From positions 943,578 through 1,007,577 of the forward strand of contig OY970153.1 in assembly GCA_963706385.1 (NCBI GenBank): a stretch of DNA of 64,000 bases. Reading direction: 5' to 3'. Numbering within the stretch: position 1 is the first letter of the stretch; each line of letters opens with the position of its first letter. Below the pieces are notes generated by a model, which was not told where the DNA came from, ran no database searches, and worked only from the letters and a program-made list of their open reading frames with translations. Both the position numbers and the translations under genes were made by a program. Below, in pieces: positions 4,044 through 25,074 of the stretch. The stretch comes from an uncultured Alphaproteobacteria bacterium (GTDB lineage: Bacteria > Pseudomonadota > Alphaproteobacteria > Caulobacterales > Caulobacteraceae).

Positions 4044-5648
4044 ATGGCGGCAGACGATGTCTCGACCCTCTCCGCCGTTCAGCTCACCGGTCCGGCCGTC
4101 GCTCGCTCCGATGATATCCTGACGCCCGACGCCCTGACCTTTCTCGCCGCGCTGCATCGCCGGTTCGACCAGCGTCGGCGCGAACTGCTGGCGGCCCGTC
4201 AGACGCGCCAGGTAGCGTTCGACGCCGGCGAACGGCCCGATTTTCTGCCCCAGACCAAGGCCATCCGCGACGGCGACTGGCGCGTCGCGCCGATCCCCGC
4301 CGATCTGCTCGATCGCCGGGTCGAGATCACCGGCCCGGTCGACCGCAAGATGATCATCAACGCCCTGAACTCGGGCGCGCGGGTGTTCATGGCCGATTTC
4401 GAGGACGCCACCTCCCCGACCTGGGCCAATATCGTCGAGGGCCAGCTCAATCTGAAGGACCGCTGGGCCGGCCGGCTGAGCCATGTCGATCCCGGCTCGG
4501 GCAAGGCCTACCGGCTGAACGACAAGACCGCCGTGCTGATGGTCCGCCCGCGCGGCTGGCACCTGCCCGAAGCCCATGCGCGGGTCGACGGCGAGGTGAT
4601 GTCGGGCGCGCTGTTCGACTTCGGCCTGTATTTCTTCCACAACGCCAAGGCGGCCATCGCCCAGGGCTCGGGACCCTATTTCTACCTGCCGAAGATGGAG
4701 AGCCATCTGGAGGCGCGGCTATGGAACGACGTCTTCGTCCACGCCGAGGACGCGCTCGGGGTGAAGCCGGGGACGATCAAGGCCACCGTGCTGATCGAGA
4801 CCCTGCCCGCCGCGTTCGAGATGGACGAGATCATCTACGAGCTGCGCGAGCACATGGCCGGGCTGAACTGCGGGCGGTGGGACTATATCTTCTCGTTCAT
4901 CAAGCGCCTGCGCCGCCATCCCGAGGCGCTGACCCCCGACCGGGCGGTGATGGGCATGGGCTCGGCGTTCCTGGCCGCCTATTCGCTGAAGCTGATCCAG
5001 ACCTGCCACCGGCGCGGGGCCTTCGCCATGGGCGGCATGGCCGCGCAGATCCCGGTCAAGGGCGATCCCGCCGCCAACGAGGCGGCCTTCGCCAAGGTCC
5101 GCGCCGACAAGGAACGCGAGGCGGTCAACGGCCATGACGGCACCTGGGTCGCCCACCCGGACCTGGTCCCGGTGGCGATGGAGATCTTCGACCGGCTGAT
5201 GCCCGGACCGAACCAGTTGGACAGGCTGCGCGCGGACGTCGAGGTCTCCCGCGAGGACCTGTTGAAAGTGCACGAGGGCGCGCGCACCGAGCACGGCCTG
5301 CGCGAGAACATCCGCGTCGGCGTGCAGTACATCGAAGCTTGGCTACGCGGCCGCGGGGCCGTGCCGCTGTACAACCTGATGGAGGACGCCGCGACCGCCG
5401 AGATCAGCCGTGCCCAGCTCTGGCAATGGATCAAGCTGGCCGCCAGGCTGGACGACGGGCGCACGGTGAGCGCCGAACTGTTCGAGGCCCTGTTGGACCA
5501 GGAAATGACCGCGCTGCGCGGGGCGCTGACGCCGGAGGTCTACGACGCCGGCCGCTTCGCCGAGGCGATCGCCCTGTTCCGCGACATGACCTTGTCGGAG
5601 CGGTTCGAGGAATTCCTCACCCTGCCGGCCTACGCGATCCTGGAGTAG
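4044..5648 (+). CDS. aceB: Malate synthase A
   Basis: 534 aa, the size of the A-type enzyme, and conserved throughout (…FMADFEDATSPTW…, …GLNCGRWDYIFS…, …THDGTWVAHP…). GGAGG lies upstream of the ATG. The gene sits immediately after aceA. Confidence 0.92.
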   Translation: MAADDVSTLSAVQLTGPAVARSDDILTPDALTFLAALHRRFDQRRRELLAARQTRQVAFDAGERPDFLPQTKAIRDGDWRVAPIPADLLDRRVEITGPVDRKMIINALNSGARVFMADFEDATSPTWANIVEGQLNLKDRWAGRLSHVDPGSGKAYRLNDKTAVLMVRPRGWHLPEAHARVDGEVMSGALFDFGLYFFHNAKAAIAQGSGPYFYLPKMESHLEARLWNDVFVHAEDALGVKPGTIKATVLIETLPAAFEMDEIIYELREHMAGLNCGRWDYIFSFIKRLRRHPEALTPDRAVMGMGSAFLAAYSLKLIQTCHRRGAFAMGGMAAQIPVKGDPAANEAAFAKVRADKEREAVNGHDGTWVAHPDLVPVAMEIFDRLMPGPNQLDRLRADVEVSREDLLKVHEGARTEHGLRENIRVGVQYIEAWLRGRGAVPLYNLMEDAATAEISRAQLWQWIKLAARLDDGRTVSAELFEALLDQEMTALRGALTPEVYDAGRFAEAIALFRDMTLSERFEEFLTLPAYAILE

Positions 5649-20520: not shown

Positions 20521-20528
20521 CGGCATTG
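20521..20528. repeat. Left copy of the 8-bp target-site duplication (CGGCATTG)
   Basis: Identical octamer at 23141-23148, immediately outside the two terminal inverted repeats. Confidence 0.85.
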
Positions 20529-20592
20529 GGGAATTATCCCTTTGACAAAGTGACCACAAGCGCTAGTATGGCCCCATTGAATGAGGCCAGCC

Positions 20593-21531
20593 ATGAGCGA
20601 CTTTTCAAACCCGATCTTCCACGACGAGACCAAGGCCCGCGCATGGCTTGAAGCGCATCTGTGGCCGTATGGTCCGGTATGTCCGCATTGCACCGTCGTC
20701 GGCCACGCCACGGTGATCAAGGGCAAGACGGCGCGTGCTGGCCTGTATCAGTGTCAGGCGTGCGAGGAACAGTTCACGGTCACGGTCGGCACGATCTACG
20801 AGCGCAGCCACGTTCCGTTGAACAAATGGCTAGGCGCAACGCACCTCATGATGGCGTCGAAGAAAGGCATGAGCGCCCTTCAGATCGGTCGCATGATCGG
20901 CGTGACGTACAAAACCGCTTGGTTCATGTGCCATCGCATCCGCGAAAGCCTGCGCGAGACCAGTCCGACGCCGCTTGGCGGAAAGGGCAAGATCGTCGAG
21001 GCCGATGAAACCTATGTGGGCGGCAAGGACAAGAACCGTCACGCCTGGAAACGCAAGCACGTTCCAGGCCCCGGCGCGAAGGAAGCGGTGGTGTCGTTGG
21101 TTGAACGCGGCGGCCGTGTCCGCAGCGCCCACGTCAGCGACGTGAACAGCAAGAACCTGCGCTTGGTCCTGACCGAGGAAATCCACGCCGCCACCCACGT
21201 CATGACCGACACGGCCCGCGCCTATCCCGCGATCGGCGCCAAGTTCGCCCAGCACTCGATGGTCAATCACAGCATTGACGAATACGTGCGCGGCGAGGTT
21301 TCGACAAACACCGTAGAGAGCTATTTCGCCATCCTGAAACGCGGGATCGTCGGGACGTTCCATCATGTCTCGCCCCAGCACTTGAAGCGCTACGTCGGCG
21401 AGTTCGACTATCGCTACAACACTCGCACCGCGCTCGGTTACAGCGACGCCGAGCGCTTCGCTGAAGCCATCCCCGGCATCGTCGGCAAGAGGCTCACCTA
21501 TCGGCGGACTGGTGGACGCGCCGAAGCCTAA
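20593..21531 (+). CDS. IS1595-family transposase (N-terminal zinc ribbon plus DDE domain)
   Basis: MSDFSNPIFHDETKARAWLEAHLWPYGPVCPHCTVVGHATVIKGKTARAGLYQCQACEEQFTVTVGTIYERSHVPLNKW...VEADETYVGGK...TDTARAYPAI...HSMVNHS...EYVRGEVSTNTVESYFAILKRG. This is the classic ISXO2-like/IS1595 pattern. Confidence 0.9.
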   Translation: MSDFSNPIFHDETKARAWLEAHLWPYGPVCPHCTVVGHATVIKGKTARAGLYQCQACEEQFTVTVGTIYERSHVPLNKWLGATHLMMASKKGMSALQIGRMIGVTYKTAWFMCHRIRESLRETSPTPLGGKGKIVEADETYVGGKDKNRHAWKRKHVPGPGAKEAVVSLVERGGRVRSAHVSDVNSKNLRLVLTEEIHAATHVMTDTARAYPAIGAKFAQHSMVNHSIDEYVRGEVSTNTVESYFAILKRGIVGTFHHVSPQHLKRYVGEFDYRYNTRTALGYSDAERFAEAIPGIVGKRLTYRRTGGRAEA

Positions 21532-21555
21532 ACCGAAGCGAGGGAGGAAGAAGCC

Positions 21556-21786
21556 GTGTCCATCGAAATCCGAGAAACCATCGTAACGCCCATGGAAAAC
21601 GGTTACGGCGTTCAGCTTCGTATTTCTGACGTGACCAGCGAAGACGAATCCGCCGCATTTGTTCTTCGCCTGAGCGTTCAAATTCCAAAGACCGCGACAG
21701 ACCAGCTTTTCCTGATTGAACGCGAGGCGTTGGCGGCTGGAAATCGGGTTCTGCGCGACTTGATAGATGCTCGGAAAACGACATGA
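21556..21786 (+). CDS. Hypothetical 76-aa protein (transposon cargo)
   Basis: GTG start, 8 nt after GGAGG and 24 nt after the transposase stop. No recognisable motif. Confidence 0.45.
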   Translation: MSIEIRETIVTPMENGYGVQLRISDVTSEDESAAFVLRLSVQIPKTATDQLFLIEREALAAGNRVLRDLIDARKTT

Positions 21787-21881
21787 CGCAGGCTCTCTCA
21801 TCCGCTATTGTGTGAGCGGGTTGAGCGGCTGTGGCGGCCGGAACCTATCGACAGCGGCGGGGCTGCAACCCCGCCCGTCGT

Positions 21882-22217
21882 CTACCGCCCTATAATCTTT
21901 CCTGTCTTAGCGTCGTGCAAGGGGTCGTTTCCCCAATTCTGATTCTGCGGCGAATTTAGAAATTCGTCTGCTGTTGGGAGTTCTTTGGCGCCAACCGGAT
22001 TGCTGCAAAGTATCGAACCGGGGCCGCTTGAATAGCAATATTGCAGCGTTCCAGTGCGGGTATCGACCCGCCATACAGCGCCAGAATTTCCGGCCGGCGC
22101 AATCGCCCACGATCCCGCCGTGGGCAGTGATTTCGGGGGGGAAGGCATAGGCGCTGAAACGGGCGCCTTGTTGCAGGCCGCCAACAATAGAGCCGCCAAG
22201 AAAACGGGCGCTCTCAT
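21882..22217 (-). CDS. Hypothetical lipoprotein (transposon cargo)
   Basis: MRAPVFLAALLLAAC|NKAP has a signal peptide with an L-A-A-C lipobox. ATGA overlap with the upstream small ORF. Confidence 0.6.
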   Translation of the reverse strand: MRAPVFLAALLLAACNKAPVSAPMPSPPKSLPTAGSWAIAPAGNSGAVWRVDTRTGTLQYCYSSGPGSILCSNPVGAKELPTADEFLNSPQNQNWGNDPLHDAKTGKIIGR

Positions 22218-22378
22218 TTATCCCTCGGTCGCTTAGCTGGACTCGACTCCGCCTTCGGTTTGGCCTTCCGATGTATCGGGCCGTGCTTGGCGGCGGCGTC
22301 AATGGCGCGCTCGAACCGCTCCCAGCCATCCGGGCGCAGTTCGGGGGGCGCGTCGGTCCGATTGGGGGTGTTTGCCAT
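22214..22378 (-). CDS. Hypothetical small basic protein, about 54 aa (transposon cargo)
   Basis: MANTPNRTDAPPELRPDGWERFERAIDAAAKHGPIHRKAKPKAESSPAKRPRDK. Translationally coupled to the lipoprotein gene. The start is uncertain; alternatives go up to 22426. Confidence 0.4.
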   Translation of the reverse strand: MANTPNRTDAPPELRPDGWERFERAIDAAAKHGPIHRKAKPKAESSPAKRPRDK

Positions 22379-23054
22379 GGCTCGCGCACCTAAAGGGCGC
22401 CACACGTTCATGCCGACGCGGCGCATTGATCCTGTGCTCCAGAATGCCGTGAAACGACACGCGCGTCACGCCGGGGAAATCATCTGGTGCTGGAACATTC
22501 TCGCGGACCAACTCTACGAGCTGCTGGTCTCGTTGCTGATCGAAAAGAGCGCAGACCGGGCATGGGGGATCGCGTACGGAATCTGGACGCCGCTGCAAAG
22601 TGACGCCGCGAAGCGACAGATAATCCAAACCATCGCCGACGCGGTTCTAGCCAAGAATCCAGATCGCCTTGAAGCGGTGACGTGGCTCTTGCGCCAGACA
22701 AAAGACCTCGCCCAGCATCGGAACGATGTCGCCCACGTCGCGATTAAGTTCGCGAATGTAGGTGGCATCACCGGCAAGCCGCCCAAGATCATGCTGGTCC
22801 CCGCTGGCGCCTCTGCCAGCAAAGAGAGGGTGGAGCGCTTGCAAGATCACCCGACCGCGACGGTCTGGCGCCGCGCACGCGGCGATCTCATGGCGTTGTC
22901 GCGGTACGCCTTTCTTTTGTCGGCGAACATTCGAGGCGACGCTGCCGCTCCATGGCCTCGTAAGCCACGGTTGCTAGCCACTCCACCGAAGTCGAAGAAA
23001 GCCAGCCGAAAAGGTCGTCGTCGGCTGCCCAAAGCGCCGCCGCCCCCGCCTTAG
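22377..23054 (+). CDS. Hypothetical all-alpha protein with HEPN-like R-x4-H motif and Lys/Arg/Pro-rich tail (transposon cargo)
   Basis: Sequence ...LLRQTKDLAQHRNDVAHVAIKF... (R115-N-D-V-A-H120, nt 22719-22736), preceded and followed by predicted helices. C-terminus PRKPRLLATPPKSKKASRKGRRRLPKAPPPPP. The track start at 22260 would overlap the opposite-strand genes. ATG 22377 forms CCATGG with the divergent ORF start. Confidence 0.5.
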   Translation: MARAPKGRHTFMPTRRIDPVLQNAVKRHARHAGEIIWCWNILADQLYELLVSLLIEKSADRAWGIAYGIWTPLQSDAAKRQIIQTIADAVLAKNPDRLEAVTWLLRQTKDLAQHRNDVAHVAIKFANVGGITGKPPKIMLVPAGASASKERVERLQDHPTATVWRRARGDLMALSRYAFLLSANIRGDAAAPWPRKPRLLATPPKSKKASRKGRRRLPKAPPPPP

Positions 23055-23140
23055 CCATAGCTGCCGTTACTTTAGTCGCCGGCCTGTCACGCCCGCTCTG
23101 ATCTAGCTGTTGACGTGACTTTGTCAAAGGGATAATTCCC

Positions 23141-23148
23141 CGGCATTG
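23141..23148. repeat. Right copy of the 8-bp target-site duplication (CGGCATTG)
   Basis: Identical to 20521-20528. Confidence 0.85.
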
Positions 23149-23174
23149 ACAAGAACAAATCATGAACATATAGT
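23147..23174 (+). promoter_or_regulatory. Sigma-70-like promoter (TTGACA-16 nt-TATAGT) with a LexA box in the spacer
   Basis: TTGACA at 23147-23152 and TATAGT at 23169-23174. The spacer contains GAACaaatcatGAAC. The TTG of the -35 element is part of the transposon target duplication. Confidence 0.55.
23153..23167 (+). promoter_or_regulatory. Alphaproteobacterial LexA (SOS) box, copy 1: GAAC-N7-GAAC
   Basis: GAACAAATCATGAAC matches the GAAC-N7-GAAC / GTTC-N7-GTTC direct-repeat consensus described for alphaproteobacterial LexA. Confidence 0.65.
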
Positions 23175-23200
23175 GCCGATCTCACCATAAGGAGATCGCC

Positions 23201-23363
23201 TTGGCGCTGATCGAAAGAAGGTTCCAACTTGAGAACAAGGCTGGGGATGACCATCAGCGGCTGCCAGCACGGCAAACTGGAGTTGAAGCGTTGAGACGCG
23301 CCCGTTTGCCCCGGGTATCTACGACGACAACGATTCGCACAGTGAGGCGGTTACGTATTACCC
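23201..23363 (+). pseudogene. Truncated 5-prime fragment of a paralogue of the 23706..24464 gene
   Basis: It has the same GGAGATCG-N2-TTG translation start context as copy 2. The N-terminus LALIERRFQLENKAG resembles LPQNDQTFRLTNDVG. The reading frame runs straight into the antisense tRNA-Leu gene. Confidence 0.45.
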
Positions 23364-23450
23364 TGGTGCGGGCGGCCGGGGTCGAACCGGCACGGGGTTT
23401 CCCCCAACGGATTTTAAGTCCGTTGCGTCTACCAGTTTCGCCACGCCCGC
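23364..23450 (-). tRNA. tRNA-Leu (anticodon UAA), class II with long variable arm, CCA encoded
   Basis: Reverse complement: GCGGGCG TG GCGAAACTGGTAGACGC A ACGGA CTTAAAA TCCGT TGGGGGAAACCCCGTG CCGG TTCGACC CCGG C CGCCCGC ACCA. There is a 7-bp acceptor stem, a TTCGA T-loop and anticodon TAA. Confidence 0.93.
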
Positions 23451-23483
23451 ACTGTCGGCAGACATACCCCGCCCGCGCCGAAC

Positions 23484-23522
23484 TTTTAAGTCCGCTGCGT
23501 CCACCAATTCCGCCCCGTCCAC
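23484..23522 (-). pseudogene. tRNA-Leu 5-prime-half pseudo-copy
   Basis: TTTTAAGTCCGCTGCGTCCACCAATTCCGCCCCGTCCAC matches 23412-23450 of the intact tRNA at 32 of 39 positions. Similarity stops at the 3-prime side of the anticodon loop. The acceptor half (GTGGACG) does not match the intact gene. Confidence 0.6.
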
Positions 23523-23656
23523 CTGAAGCGGGCAGGGTTACAGGCGGAGCGCGCCCACTTCCAGCCCCGCCGCGCCGCCGCGTCCAGCGGGTCCGGCGTG
23601 ATGCGCTCGACCCCGGCCGCGGTCAGGGCGGTCCGGCGATCGAACAACCTCTATAA

Positions 23657-23671
23657 GAACAAATCACGAAC
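23657..23671 (+). promoter_or_regulatory. Alphaproteobacterial LexA (SOS) box, copy 2: GAAC-N7-GAAC, followed by TATAAT
   Basis: GAACAAATCACGAAC, then TATAAT at 23673-23678. The 26-nt core AAGAACAAATCA(T/C)GAACATATA(G/A)TGC is shared with copy 1. Confidence 0.65.
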
Positions 23672-23705
23672 ATATAATGCGTCAACATACCGCCAGGAGA
23701 TCGAT

Positions 23706-24464
23706 TTGCCCCAGAACGATCAGACTTTTCGGCTGACGAACGATGTTGGAAGCTTGGGATTGAGGTGCGCGGCGACGGGCGTTTCGCTCGCGGGCGTGCC
23801 GCTGCTACGTAAGACCCTCGTGGGATTGGAACCCCGGCCGACCGAAGAAATCGGCGCGCTGTTGGAAGAGGCCTATGGCCAGCCCGTCGATCCCGCCAAT
23901 GTGTCGCCCGGACTCGATGTCATCGCTCAGGCGCTCAATCGGGGAGATCTCGGACGGGCGATGATCGCCGCGGTACACCTAAGACTTCCCGAATTGAGCT
24001 GGGACGGTGCGGCGCGCATCGCCAAGGCGCACGGCGGCTTGACCAAATATGACCCCGACGAACCGCGGGACGAGCGCGGACGATGGACGACCGATGGGGC
24101 TTCGGGCCCGAACATGGCAAGTTCGCCCGGAGCCTTCCGTCACGACTCCCGGCCTGACGTCATGACGCCGATCCCGGTCGCCAACCGCCGTCTGCCCGAC
24201 GACGATCCCGCCTCCATCGTGTGCAACGTGGCGACCAGGCAATGTCAACTCAGCGCCCTGGACGACAAGACCAGACCATACTTCGACAGCTGCTGGAAGG
24301 CGGAAAACGCTTGCGAGCTTGTCGTATCCGCAAGTCGATCAAGCCCAGAACAACCGTTCTACGTTATATATCCAGACAGGACGGTTGTATCCATTTTGGA
24401 CGGAACCGCCATCATAACGCACATCGCCGGCACGAGACTGCAGCGTCCCTTTAGCGGGCGGTGA
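23706..24464 (+). CDS. Hypothetical protein (about 252 aa) downstream of LexA box 2
   Basis: TTG start, 5 nt after AGGAGA. The track ORF start at 23598 lies upstream of the putative promoter. It contains the motif YDPDEPRDERGRWT and a C-terminal region with four Cys. The composition looks AT-richer by eye. Confidence 0.55.
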   Translation: MPQNDQTFRLTNDVGSLGLRCAATGVSLAGVPLLRKTLVGLEPRPTEEIGALLEEAYGQPVDPANVSPGLDVIAQALNRGDLGRAMIAAVHLRLPELSWDGAARIAKAHGGLTKYDPDEPRDERGRWTTDGASGPNMASSPGAFRHDSRPDVMTPIPVANRRLPDDDPASIVCNVATRQCQLSALDDKTRPYFDSCWKAENACELVVSASRSSPEQPFYVIYPDRTVVSILDGTAIITHIAGTRLQRPFSGR

Positions 24465-24514
24465 TACTACGCATATACGGCAATCCACAATCATACGATG
24501 ACTGAAAATACGCC

Positions 24515-24913
24515 ATGATTTATCGCAACTTTCTCACGTTCACGATGTCGATCGCGATAGCATTTCTCGCCGCATCAGGAGGGTTTACAATGAACAACGA
24601 CGTAGAGAACGGCAATGATTTTCCGCCGATCTCACCAGCCGGGGAAACGGCTGCACCGAGCAACCCCGCATTTGTAAATCAATGTCTGTCACAACTGAAT
24701 TCCTTGTCCGGGATGGGAAAAATCACACCCGGCCCCAACCTGCTGACCAAGAACAATCGATGGGGATCCGTTTTCCGCGCCGATTTTTCGATTGGAAATG
24801 AAAAAACCGGTCCACTTAGAAATAGATTGGTCTGCTGGAAGCAGAAAGATGGGCAAATCAGCATCATGCTTGCAATTGGTCAAGCTGTGCCGGCCCTGAA
24901 TAGGGCCAACTGA
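24515..24913 (+). CDS. Hypothetical small exported or membrane-anchored protein (132 aa)
   Basis: N-terminal hydrophobic segment MSIAIAFLAASGGF. AT-rich codon usage compared with its surroundings. No family recognised. No clear RBS. Confidence 0.4.
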   Translation: MIYRNFLTFTMSIAIAFLAASGGFTMNNDVENGNDFPPISPAGETAAPSNPAFVNQCLSQLNSLSGMGKITPGPNLLTKNNRWGSVFRADFSIGNEKTGPLRNRLVCWKQKDGQISIMLAIGQAVPALNRAN

Positions 24914-25074
24914 TTTGAACTCGGGCGGATAGAGTCGAATTGGCGTTATGGCCAATAACTGATCGGCGCGCGGCTGGCTCAGCTCGATGATTCGTCCGAA
25001 TTCAGAAGTTCAAACGTTTAGGGCGTATTGGGCGCCGAAACCGCGTACGCTTTCGGCCAACACGCCTTGGTGGC

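Follow-up and report, generated by a model that had tools for sequence, protein, structure and literature searches.

A conserved R-x4-H protein gene and overlapping micro-genes beside the right end of an IS1595-family element

In the window, a 64,000-nucleotide stretch of contig OY970153.1 from an uncultured Alphaproteobacteria bacterium, positions 20529-23140 are an intact 2,612-bp insertion sequence (IS) of the IS1595 family. Beside its right inverted repeat (IRR), the element carries a gene for a 225-aa protein with an R-x4-H motif, a divergent gene for a 54-aa protein whose start codon overlaps that of the first, and an antisense open reading frame (ORF) across the 3' tail of the 225-aa gene (Table 1). 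Comparison with related elements indicated that the 225-aa and 54-aa genes belong to the IS as components conserved in its lineage and are not free cargo. The three genes form a conserved accessory module and, with modest confidence, we infer that it would act as an RNase-type toxin or regulator circuit integral to the element. A sequence-only reading of the same DNA had described a HEPN-like protein and a divergent small-protein/lipoprotein pair as transposon cargo.

A gene module at a fixed place in an IS1595 lineage

The element was delimited by inverted repeats (IRs) whose tips match at 23/23 nt (0 such matches expected from shuffled sequence), by an 8-bp direct repeat, CGGCATTG, and by a full-length transposase (Tnp) gene, tnp. 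It is therefore a complete IS1595 element with a recent-looking insertion, and the earlier claim of a transposon-borne unit was confirmed. The transposase matched DDE_Tnp_IS1595 (PF12762, 5.5e-37, profile positions 5-153 of 153) and Zn_ribbon_IS1595 (PF12760, 4.6e-11) in Pfam, and transpos_IS1595 (NF033547, 1.3e-56) in NCBIfam. All features of the family were found, namely a DDE transposase with an N-terminal zinc ribbon, terminal IRs and an 8-bp target-site duplication (TSD), the length typical of IS1595 elements.

The association of the R-x4-H gene with this kind of element was evaluated in related loci (numbered from L001). A same-strand IS1595 transposase gene was found upstream of the R-x4-H gene in 16/19 loci with enough upstream DNA (the window, L001-L003, L006, L009-L011, L014, L016-L018, L031, L144 and, as remnants, L019 and L020), and there was no transposase in L008, L015 and L023. 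Moreover, the R-x4-H gene was the last gene before the right IR in 8/8 complete elements, at a distance of 50-90 nt, and L006 is a minimal 1.9-kb element that consists of tnp and the module, with nothing else. A scan of one genome per species for the IR pattern GGNNATTATNNNCTTGACAAAG returned at least 120 loci, mostly in Alphaproteobacteria, and the hosts include Bradyrhizobium japonicum SZCCT0153, Sphingomonas sp. Root710 and Citromicrobium bathyomarinum. Among the matches listed, the 40 loci that combine a good transposase with 1.2 kb or more of downstream DNA were tested for two linked ORFs, one on the same strand, 150-300 aa long and with R[NDHQ]xxxH between residues 60 and 170, and a divergent, CATG-coupled one of 35-110 aa. 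Such a pair was present in 16/40 of these listed loci vs. 0/40 on the control strand. Because the 225-aa and 54-aa genes are conserved in the lineage and fixed in position beside the right IR, the label of cargo does not suit them; it does suit the lipoprotein gene and a 76-aa ORF, which lie in a variable slot.

This slot, the segment between tnp and the 54-aa gene, differed in every element compared and is the real cargo slot. In the window it contains the 76-aa ORF (ORF76), which follows the transposase gene with a GTG start preceded by GGGAGG, much as the sequence-only reading had it, and a gene for a 111-aa putative lipoprotein that begins with MRAPVFLAALLLAAC, a signal peptide followed by an LAAC lipobox. 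The G+C content at third codon positions (GC3) was 0.545 for ORF76 and 0.589 for the lipoprotein gene vs. 0.795 for tnp, and 0.55-0.59 for the middle segment vs. 0.74-0.80. Neither product matched a family in Pfam, PADLOC and NCBIfam scans. ORF76 was not conserved in related elements by tblastn, and the lipoprotein was missing from them, with other secreted or membrane ORFs in the same place. In L001 the slot is filled by an 80-aa ORF and a signal-peptide-like ORF of 189 aa, in L002 by a membrane ORF of 226 aa, and in L006 it is empty. Given this variability of the middle segment and its lower GC3, ORF76 and the lipoprotein are incidental to the module. The lipoprotein was rejected as a module partner, given its absence from all related elements and its different GC3. 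Thus, the earlier small-protein/lipoprotein pair is real as an arrangement, with an ATGA overlap (plus-strand tcat at 22214-22217) and the lipobox, and incidental as a pairing; of the four ORFs whose co-occurrence had been proposed as a check, the 225-aa and 54-aa genes were conserved together and the other two were not.

Two further observations concern the slot. Products of the cargo genes that adjoin the small ORF tend to be secreted or membrane-bound, as a pattern or by chance; these are the window lipoprotein, the signal-peptide-like ORF of L001 (5256-5825), the transmembrane ORF of L002 (5136-5816) and a micro-protein with two transmembrane segments in L008 (about 4599-4790). In L017 (3144-5747) and L018 (a Sphingopyxis metagenome-assembled genome (MAG)), the slot carries a NYN-like gene (PIN-like RNase, weak Pfam match), and an AIPR abortive-infection gene lies directly outside the right IR.

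The module persists with a decayed or absent transposase in L008 and L019-L022, with R and H kept in L008. Identity to the window proteins was 67% for the transposase vs. 22% for the R-x4-H protein in L016, and 50% vs. 56% in L001. These discordant identities suggested that the module is shuffled between elements or evolves much faster than the transposase, and strict co-evolution of the two proteins was therefore rejected. Fast divergence of this kind is typical of conflict proteins.

Overlapping genes on either side of the R-x4-H gene

The start codons of the 54-aa and 225-aa genes share the tetranucleotide CATG. The ATG of the small ORF shares CATG with an opposite-strand ORF of at least 150 aa in 37/54 distinct loci, and R[NDHQST]xxxH was present in 30 of the 37 CATG-coupled partner ORFs. 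The pairing held even between elements whose large proteins barely align. Because the overlap recurs in dozens of independent elements, mis-assignment of a start is excluded, and the overlap is best understood as a conserved design feature. The two starts had earlier been placed in a shared CCATGG, with the suspicion that one of them was mis-assigned; the shared CATG stood and the suspicion did not. Homologues supported the start pair at 22376-22379. A second in-phase CATG at 22409-22412, formed by Met12 of the 225-aa ORF and an upstream Met of an extended small ORF, was also observed, and the window copy therefore has alternative paired starts. In addition, a G-rich Shine-Dalgarno (SD)-like run (GGGGG or GGAGG) lies 8-14 nt upstream of the large gene's ATG, within the first codons of the small ORF; for the 225-aa gene of the window the distance is 10-15 nt.

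The 54-aa protein has an acidic N-terminus, a W-ERFERAI helix and a basic PxHRKAKPK tail. A hidden Markov model (HMM) search over loci with recovered DNA detected homologues in 58 loci, in which the N-terminus is acidic, the helix amphipathic (W/E-x-RFERAV or EVLRRML) and the tail basic (TPPxPH[KR]). Library scans with the small proteins gave no match to Pfam or to a known antitoxin family.

At the other end of the 225-aa gene, the antisense frame is open over 22888-23169, extends within the IS to 23127 at most, and overlaps codons 171-225 of the large gene; the sequence-only reading had overlooked this ORF. The product follows the pattern ..RDRPxxxITPAMxxAGxxAL...E.LA..Y.AM.., with the family motif ITPEMxxAGxxAL. 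The ORF was open and homologous in 12/15 loci with DNA, was detected in 29 loci by HMM, and is called as a gene in some public assemblies. Its conserved ATG is at 23058-23056, and coding-type conservation reaches upstream of that codon. Conservation is highest in the block ITPAM..AL, located at or past the stop codon of the large gene. There the 225-aa frame is broken by 16 stops, and the antisense-frame signature of the block (0.425/0.344/0.623 at codon positions 1/2/3) is a clear coding pattern. In a second antisense block, both frames were open and similarly conserved, and this result suggested genuine dual coding in the overlap. As a separate observation, L146 (3240-3587) encodes a stand-alone 115-aa protein with two tandem ITPEMxxAG...VY.AM domains among phage baseplate-like genes. 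This copy overlaps no R-x4-H gene and shows that the antisense product represents an independent protein domain family.

Within the 225-aa gene, core differences were 0.52/0.43/0.66 and 0.56/0.48/0.72 at codon positions 1/2/3, a normal coding pattern, and those of the tail (residues 187-225) were 0.49/0.59/0.57, with position 2 the most variable. The basic, Pro-rich tail is largely a mirror image of the antisense ORF. A functional DNA- or RNA-binding arm had been considered for this tail, and the proposal was weakened by the poor constraint on its own reading frame.

Between the 225-aa stop codon and IRR, just upstream of the antisense ORF, lies a 15-nt block that is identical or nearly so in the window, L003, L004, L006 and L007 and partial in L001 and L011, where the proteins are 30-45% identical. 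Conservation of the block does not spare any of the three codon positions, so that a signal in the DNA or RNA is likely, and the block is a candidate binding site or RNA signal.

The R-x4-H protein and its proposed role

The 225-aa ORF, which contains KDLAQHRNDVAHV, and its C-terminal basic, Pro-rich tail, PWPRKPRLLATPPKSKKASRKGRRRLPKAPPPPP, were both found where the sequence-only reading had placed them. A word-indexed search returned only 8 relatives of the protein. A full profile scan that covered 1.84 billion representative proteins gave at least 1,129 clusters (at 50% identity) at E<1e-3 and 525 at E<1e-10. The members are nearly all of 200-250 aa and aligned end to end. In an alignment of 61 sequences with a mean column identity of 27%, W70, D76, W103, R115, H120 and P197 were invariant and N116, Q79 and R80 were at least 90% conserved; the conservation of R and H, proposed earlier as a check on the motif, is thereby established. 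Furthermore, R[NDH]xxxH was kept in 16 further distant IS-borne relatives. In these alignments, an invariant R...H pair with a polar residue after R, among proteins otherwise about 25% identical, is the pattern of a putative catalytic dyad. Many large proteins of the IR-pattern loci had only marginal family-HMM scores and were still collinear, with an N-terminal h-G-x-h-x3-W-x2-h-E helix followed by R-x4-H. No relative was found in a peptide-pattern scan of genome contigs or by plasmid tblastn, and the family surfaced in genomes only via the IR DNA pattern.

The AlphaFold2 model built from a deep alignment had a predicted local distance difference test (pLDDT) score of 93.2 and a predicted template modelling (pTM) score of 0.83. 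Helices were predicted at residues 22-53, 59-70, 76-90 and 95-120, the last of which ends in RNDVAH, followed by a β-hairpin (123-142), helices 149-157 and 160-185, and an extended tail. The protein had been described as all-helical with its motif at the junction of two helices; the model is mostly helical and the motif is present, but the motif sits at a helix end with the hairpin after it.

These data also bear on an alternative reading, that the motif and the small ORFs are coincidental in GC-rich DNA and only the transposase is functional, the rest being a decaying passenger. High-GC DNA does easily yield long antisense ORFs, of which there are many in the window, and the small ORF has neither a strong coding signature nor an SD. 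Such an origin is nevertheless highly improbable in view of the more than 1,100 clusters of full-length homologues, the confident AlphaFold2 model and the normal codon-position pattern of the 225-aa core. The recurrence of the small ORF in 58 loci and of the antisense ORF in 29, vs. none on the control strand, and the stand-alone ITPEM-domain gene in L146 argue in the same direction, and the G+C content of the element, 60%, is not extreme.

HEPN domains are defined by an Rx4-6H motif that closes helix 3 and has a polar residue next to its R; an upstream acidic-x3-basic motif occurs, inserts are tolerated, and β-hairpins are present in Csx1 (PMC3710099). A second conserved acidic residue upstream, typically part of Ex3[KR] in helix 2, occurs in many HEPN families, not all. 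In the 61 sequences and the 16 distant relatives, Rx4-6H was found with polar N, D or H after R. In the AlphaFold2 secondary structure, the motif forms the C-terminus of helix 95-120, and the hairpin and then helix 160-185 come after it, an order that is compatible with a HEPN domain. Upstream of the motif is D76-x3-R80, of which D76 is invariant and R80 near-invariant in the 61-sequence family. The only recurrent weak matches were, in PADLOC, to Csx1 (2 members; best 8e-4, other score 0.024) and CARF_HEPN (2 members; 0.039) among the 61, and the Csx1 match of the window protein ended exactly at H120. These features suggested that the family fits the published HEPN description at the level of sequence and predicted secondary structure.

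The module comprises a helical protein of about 200-250 aa with an invariant R-[N/D/H]-x3-H (here the 225-aa protein), a divergent acidic-then-basic protein of about 40-60 aa whose ATG shares CATG with the first gene, and a helical protein of about 55-75 aa (ITPEMxxAGxxAL) encoded antisense across the 3' tail of the first gene. On the reading that we favour, the large protein would be a metal-independent RNase of a divergent HEPN type in the service of the element, either in toxin-like addiction and retention or as a nuclease that tunes transposase expression, and one or both small proteins would restrain it. Given the head-to-head and tail-to-tail overlaps, the opposing transcripts would pair with the toxin mRNA over its ribosome-binding site and over its 3' end, and this complementarity could provide built-in antisense or transcriptional-interference control. 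The overlaps would also keep the module genes inseparable during transposition. The architecture and its conservation, the invariant motif and the coding signatures are observed, and the HEPN fold, RNase activity, toxicity and the question of who neutralises whom are all inferred here. A stronger version, in which a new HEPN-like RNase and two micro-proteins give the IS1595 lineage a previously unrecognised, self-contained circuit for control or addiction that works at both RNA and protein level and enforces retention or gates transposition, is put forward only tentatively.

Several observations weigh against the proposal. With the pLDDT-93 model, Foldseek against the PDB placed no HEPN structure among the best 50 matches (best E 0.64, TM at most 0.33). 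No match was found for the 61 family members in Pfam, NCBIfam, PHROG or PDB sequences, library scans gave no significant family for 17 distant relatives, and D76-x3-R80 is not kept in the wider IS-borne superfamily. Because detectable similarity to known HEPN domains, which defines membership, was sought in these searches and did not appear, HEPN membership of the R-x4-H family is probable rather than demonstrated. The small ORF has no consistent SD, its coding signature is weak (pairwise differences of 0.576/0.505/0.614 at codon positions 1/2/3), and the small protein is better conserved than the putative toxin, which is atypical of antitoxins. In addition, the gene layout is unlike that of a canonical type II toxin-antitoxin (TA) operon. 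About half (40-60%) of the IR-pattern elements among the matches listed have no detectable module or carry unrelated ORFs; therefore, the module is an optional add-on that is not required for transposition chemistry. L039, L097, L129, L131 and L139 are complete 1.8-1.9-kb elements with the same IR pattern and no module. These five, from Phycisphaerales, Sumerlaeota and other non-alphaproteobacterial MAGs, were observed to carry one unrelated 200-290-aa ORF opposite to the tnp strand.

The earlier identification of R-x4-6-H as a HEPN signature thus holds as an invariant, family-defining motif, and the fold that it implied is unconfirmed. Foldseek against the PDB gave nothing with the shallow or the deep model, so that the proposed structure and profile check returned no HEPN structure and no confident match to any other PDB fold either. 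A match to an AP-1 sigma protein in the profile search against PDB sequences was dismissed as spurious. The absence of a known HEPN partner such as an MNT nucleotidyltransferase, as noted before, was confirmed in Pfam, NCBIfam and PADLOC scans of the window ORFs.

An alternative role for the 225-aa protein is that of an Abi-type, single-protein HEPN anti-phage defence, carried as host-beneficial cargo on an IS that is retained because it protects the host. The R-N-x3-H motif with its weak Csx1/CARF_HEPN similarity, the fast divergence of the protein sequence, and the NYN-like gene and neighbouring AIPR gene of L017/L018 are in keeping with it, as is a BFVD structure search that gave one unnamed viral protein of similar predicted fold (E 4e-3, TMt 0.68). 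HEPN Abi proteins are also common on mobile elements (PMC3710099). We consider this role unlikely, as none of the 5,027 models of PADLOC-DB v2 rose above noise (none below E 8e-4 for the 61 members and none for 10 distant relatives), and the fixed position and orientation by IRR, together with a CATG-coupled ORF across deep divergence, point to element-level design. Moreover, the real cargo slot is elsewhere and is variable.

The protein might instead be a non-catalytic transposition helper or regulator with the small proteins as co-regulators, for example one that binds nucleic acid through its basic tail and R/H at the 15-nt motif or on tnp mRNA and affects transposase expression or transpososome assembly. 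The R-x4-H gene always adjoins IRR, the 15-nt block is conserved between its stop codon and IRR, the C-terminus is strongly basic, and a structural match to HEPN is lacking. Conserved helper or regulatory genes are known from other IS families, and accessory, often regulatory, IS-associated genes are mentioned in PMC3129680. This role is doubtful: the basic tail shows little constraint in its own frame and mirrors the antisense ORF, the invariant R...H pair has the pattern of a catalytic dyad, and transposition occurs without the module in many IR-pattern elements. The reading that we prefer is still that of an RNase-type toxin or regulator integral to the element.

Element ends, surroundings and comparison with known systems

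Table 1. Features of the IS1595-family element and its module in the window.
Feature	Coordinates	Strand	Basis or remark
Target-site duplication CGGCATTG, left copy	20521-20528	.	identical to right copy
Left inverted repeat (IRL), tip GGGAATTATCCCTTTGACAAAGT	20529-20566	+	39-nt arms 87% complementary
Promoter-like TTGACA-16-TAGTAT within IRL, pointing into tnp	20542-20569	+	consensus scan, 10/12 matches, putative
IS1595-family DDE transposase (tnp), full length	20581-21531	+	Pfam and NCBIfam profiles
76-aa ORF (ORF76), GTG start, GGGAGG upstream, variable cargo	21556-21786	+	no family match
GC-rich hairpin GGCGGGG-CTGCAA-CCCCGCC between convergent ORF76 and lipoprotein genes	21856-21875	.	read from sequence
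111-aa putative lipoprotein, variable cargo	21882-22217	-	lipobox from translation
54-aa small protein, conserved module partner	22214-22378	-	HMM and CATG pairing
CATG, two divergent start codons overlapping	22376-22379	.	inside CCATGG 22375-22380
225-aa R-x4-H (HEPN-like) protein, last gene before IRR	22377-23054	+	family alignment, AlphaFold2
Codons for R115-N-D-V-A-H120, putative catalytic motif	22719-22736	+	alignment of 61 sequences
Conserved antisense ORF over 3' tail of 225-aa gene	22888-23127	-	homology, coding signature
15-nt block CGTGACAGGCCGGCG (minus strand), between 225-aa stop and IRR	23077-23091	-	conserved at wobble positions
IRR	23103-23140	-	23-nt tip same as IRL tip
Target-site duplication CGGCATTG, right copy	23141-23148	.	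identical to left copy

Ends of the type GGnnATTATnnnCTTGACAAAG also occur in L001, L002, L006, L011, L016 and L017 and in at least 120 genome loci, and the L011 element is likewise flanked by an 8-bp repeat, AGAGTTCT. The ends, GGGAATTAT, appear to fit the consensus GGnnATTAT ('ggnnatTAT') of the ISNwi1 subgroup, whose transposases carry a DDEK+ER4 signature, and the element is a putative member of that subgroup. Because homologues begin at the MS..NPIF position, the true start of tnp is likely the ATG at 20593, with GAGG before it, in an ORF that opens at 20581. The TTGACA of the promoter-like site in IRL belongs to the conserved IR core. IRR has an inward-facing TTGACA (23127-23122), then 16 nt and TAGATC, seen by eye only and below the promoter-scan threshold; an inward promoter that drives the antisense ORF was therefore not established, its -10 hexamer matching at 3/6 by eye. 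The hairpin between ORF76 and the lipoprotein gene has no T-run and is at most a putative terminator. The G+C content of the element is 60.4% vs. about 72% in the DNA to its left.

In the host DNA, a promoter-like TTGACA-17-TATAGT on the plus strand (23146-23174; near-consensus sigma-70-type, 11/12 matches) overlaps the right TSD, its TTGACA starting in or next to the duplication (CGGCATTG+ACA). This position suggested that the IS landed in or at the -35 box of a rightward host promoter, and the target duplication leaves the putative promoter whole on the right side. The DNA right of the IS (23141-25000) has a low G+C content, 0.62 vs. 0.72 on the left, and contains a tRNA-Leu(TAA) gene (23364-23450, minus strand) and two ORFs without a family match, one of 288 aa (23598-24464) and one of 132 aa (24515-24913; GC 0.50) with an N-terminal hydrophobic segment. 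The IS may thus have entered a genomic islet associated with the tRNA gene.

No description of a HEPN-like accessory module, a CATG-coupled micro-ORF or an antisense ITPEM gene was found in the searchable literature (queried for ISNwi1, IS1595 with HEPN, and IS passenger genes), which excludes ISfinder and the 2009 IS1595 paper, and the earlier view of an undescribed combination was upheld within that scope. Insertion sequences are usually seen as a transposase and its ends, and the extra genes of IS1595 transporter ISs (tIS) as arbitrary passengers. Here, a large unannotated superfamily and two micro-protein families prove to be fixed parts of one IS lineage with a wide distribution in Alphaproteobacteria, among them isolates of Bradyrhizobium, Sphingomonas and Citromicrobium. 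Public annotations mostly leave the 54-aa and antisense ORFs uncalled. Should the large protein be an RNase toxin or regulator, the module would be a new example of small DDE elements that secure their own maintenance and would add a new HEPN family; it would also offer a compact natural case of regulation by overlapping genes that share start codons and are dual-coded in antisense.

Conserved non-transposase IS genes are known from TnpB/IscB of IS200/IS605 and IS607, for which a role in element retention has been proposed; TnpB is a RuvC DNA nuclease guided by a non-coding RNA that is encoded at the IS end. The module in the window shows no sign of RuvC or a guide RNA, and the analogy is functional only.

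The element resembles IS1595 tIS in its DDE transposase with an N-terminal zinc ribbon, its IRs and 8-bp target duplication, a size of 1.9-3.5 kb, and the presence of additional genes after the transposase gene and before the right end. The passenger genes of tIS are described as variable and unrelated to transposition in PMC3129680, which cites Siguier, Gagnevin and Chandler (2009). In contrast, the extra DNA here is in part a conserved, position-fixed three-gene module common to many elements.

With HEPN RNases (Abi, HepT, Csm6/Csx1, RnlA/LsoA, KEN; PMC3710099), the window protein shares a mostly α-helical make-up, R-x4-H with N after R, a motif that ends a long helix and is followed by a loop, an acidic-x3-basic motif upstream (within its own family) and association with selfish elements; the β-hairpin after the motif is a likeness to Csx1. 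Unlike these RNases, it has no significant profile or structure match, no MNT, CARF or usual partner, and a dual-coded C-terminal basic, Pro-rich extension. Type II TA systems are built of two neighbouring co-transcribed genes, one of them for a labile protein antitoxin that binds the toxin and neutralises it. Compared with these, the genes are divergent with overlapping starts, not an operon, and the small proteins match no known antitoxin family.

TA pairs, including one HEPN-MNT pair, are integral to transposition modules of Tn3-family transposons (PMC7157771). The window module is similar in that a putative RNase-type toxin gene occupies a fixed, functionally central place in the transposon, outside the cargo, and in its proposed role in transposon maintenance or regulation. 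It differs in that the element is a small DDE IS, the toxin family is new and no antitoxin family is recognisable, and its genes are arranged head-to-head with overlapping starts and an antisense gene rather than co-transcribed. With its unannotated protein families and unusual overlapping-gene layout, the module would belong to a known kind, the transposon-integral toxin or regulator modules. If a retention or gating circuit is indeed present, it would be the DDE-IS counterpart of TnpB-mediated retention and of the Tn3 TA modules.

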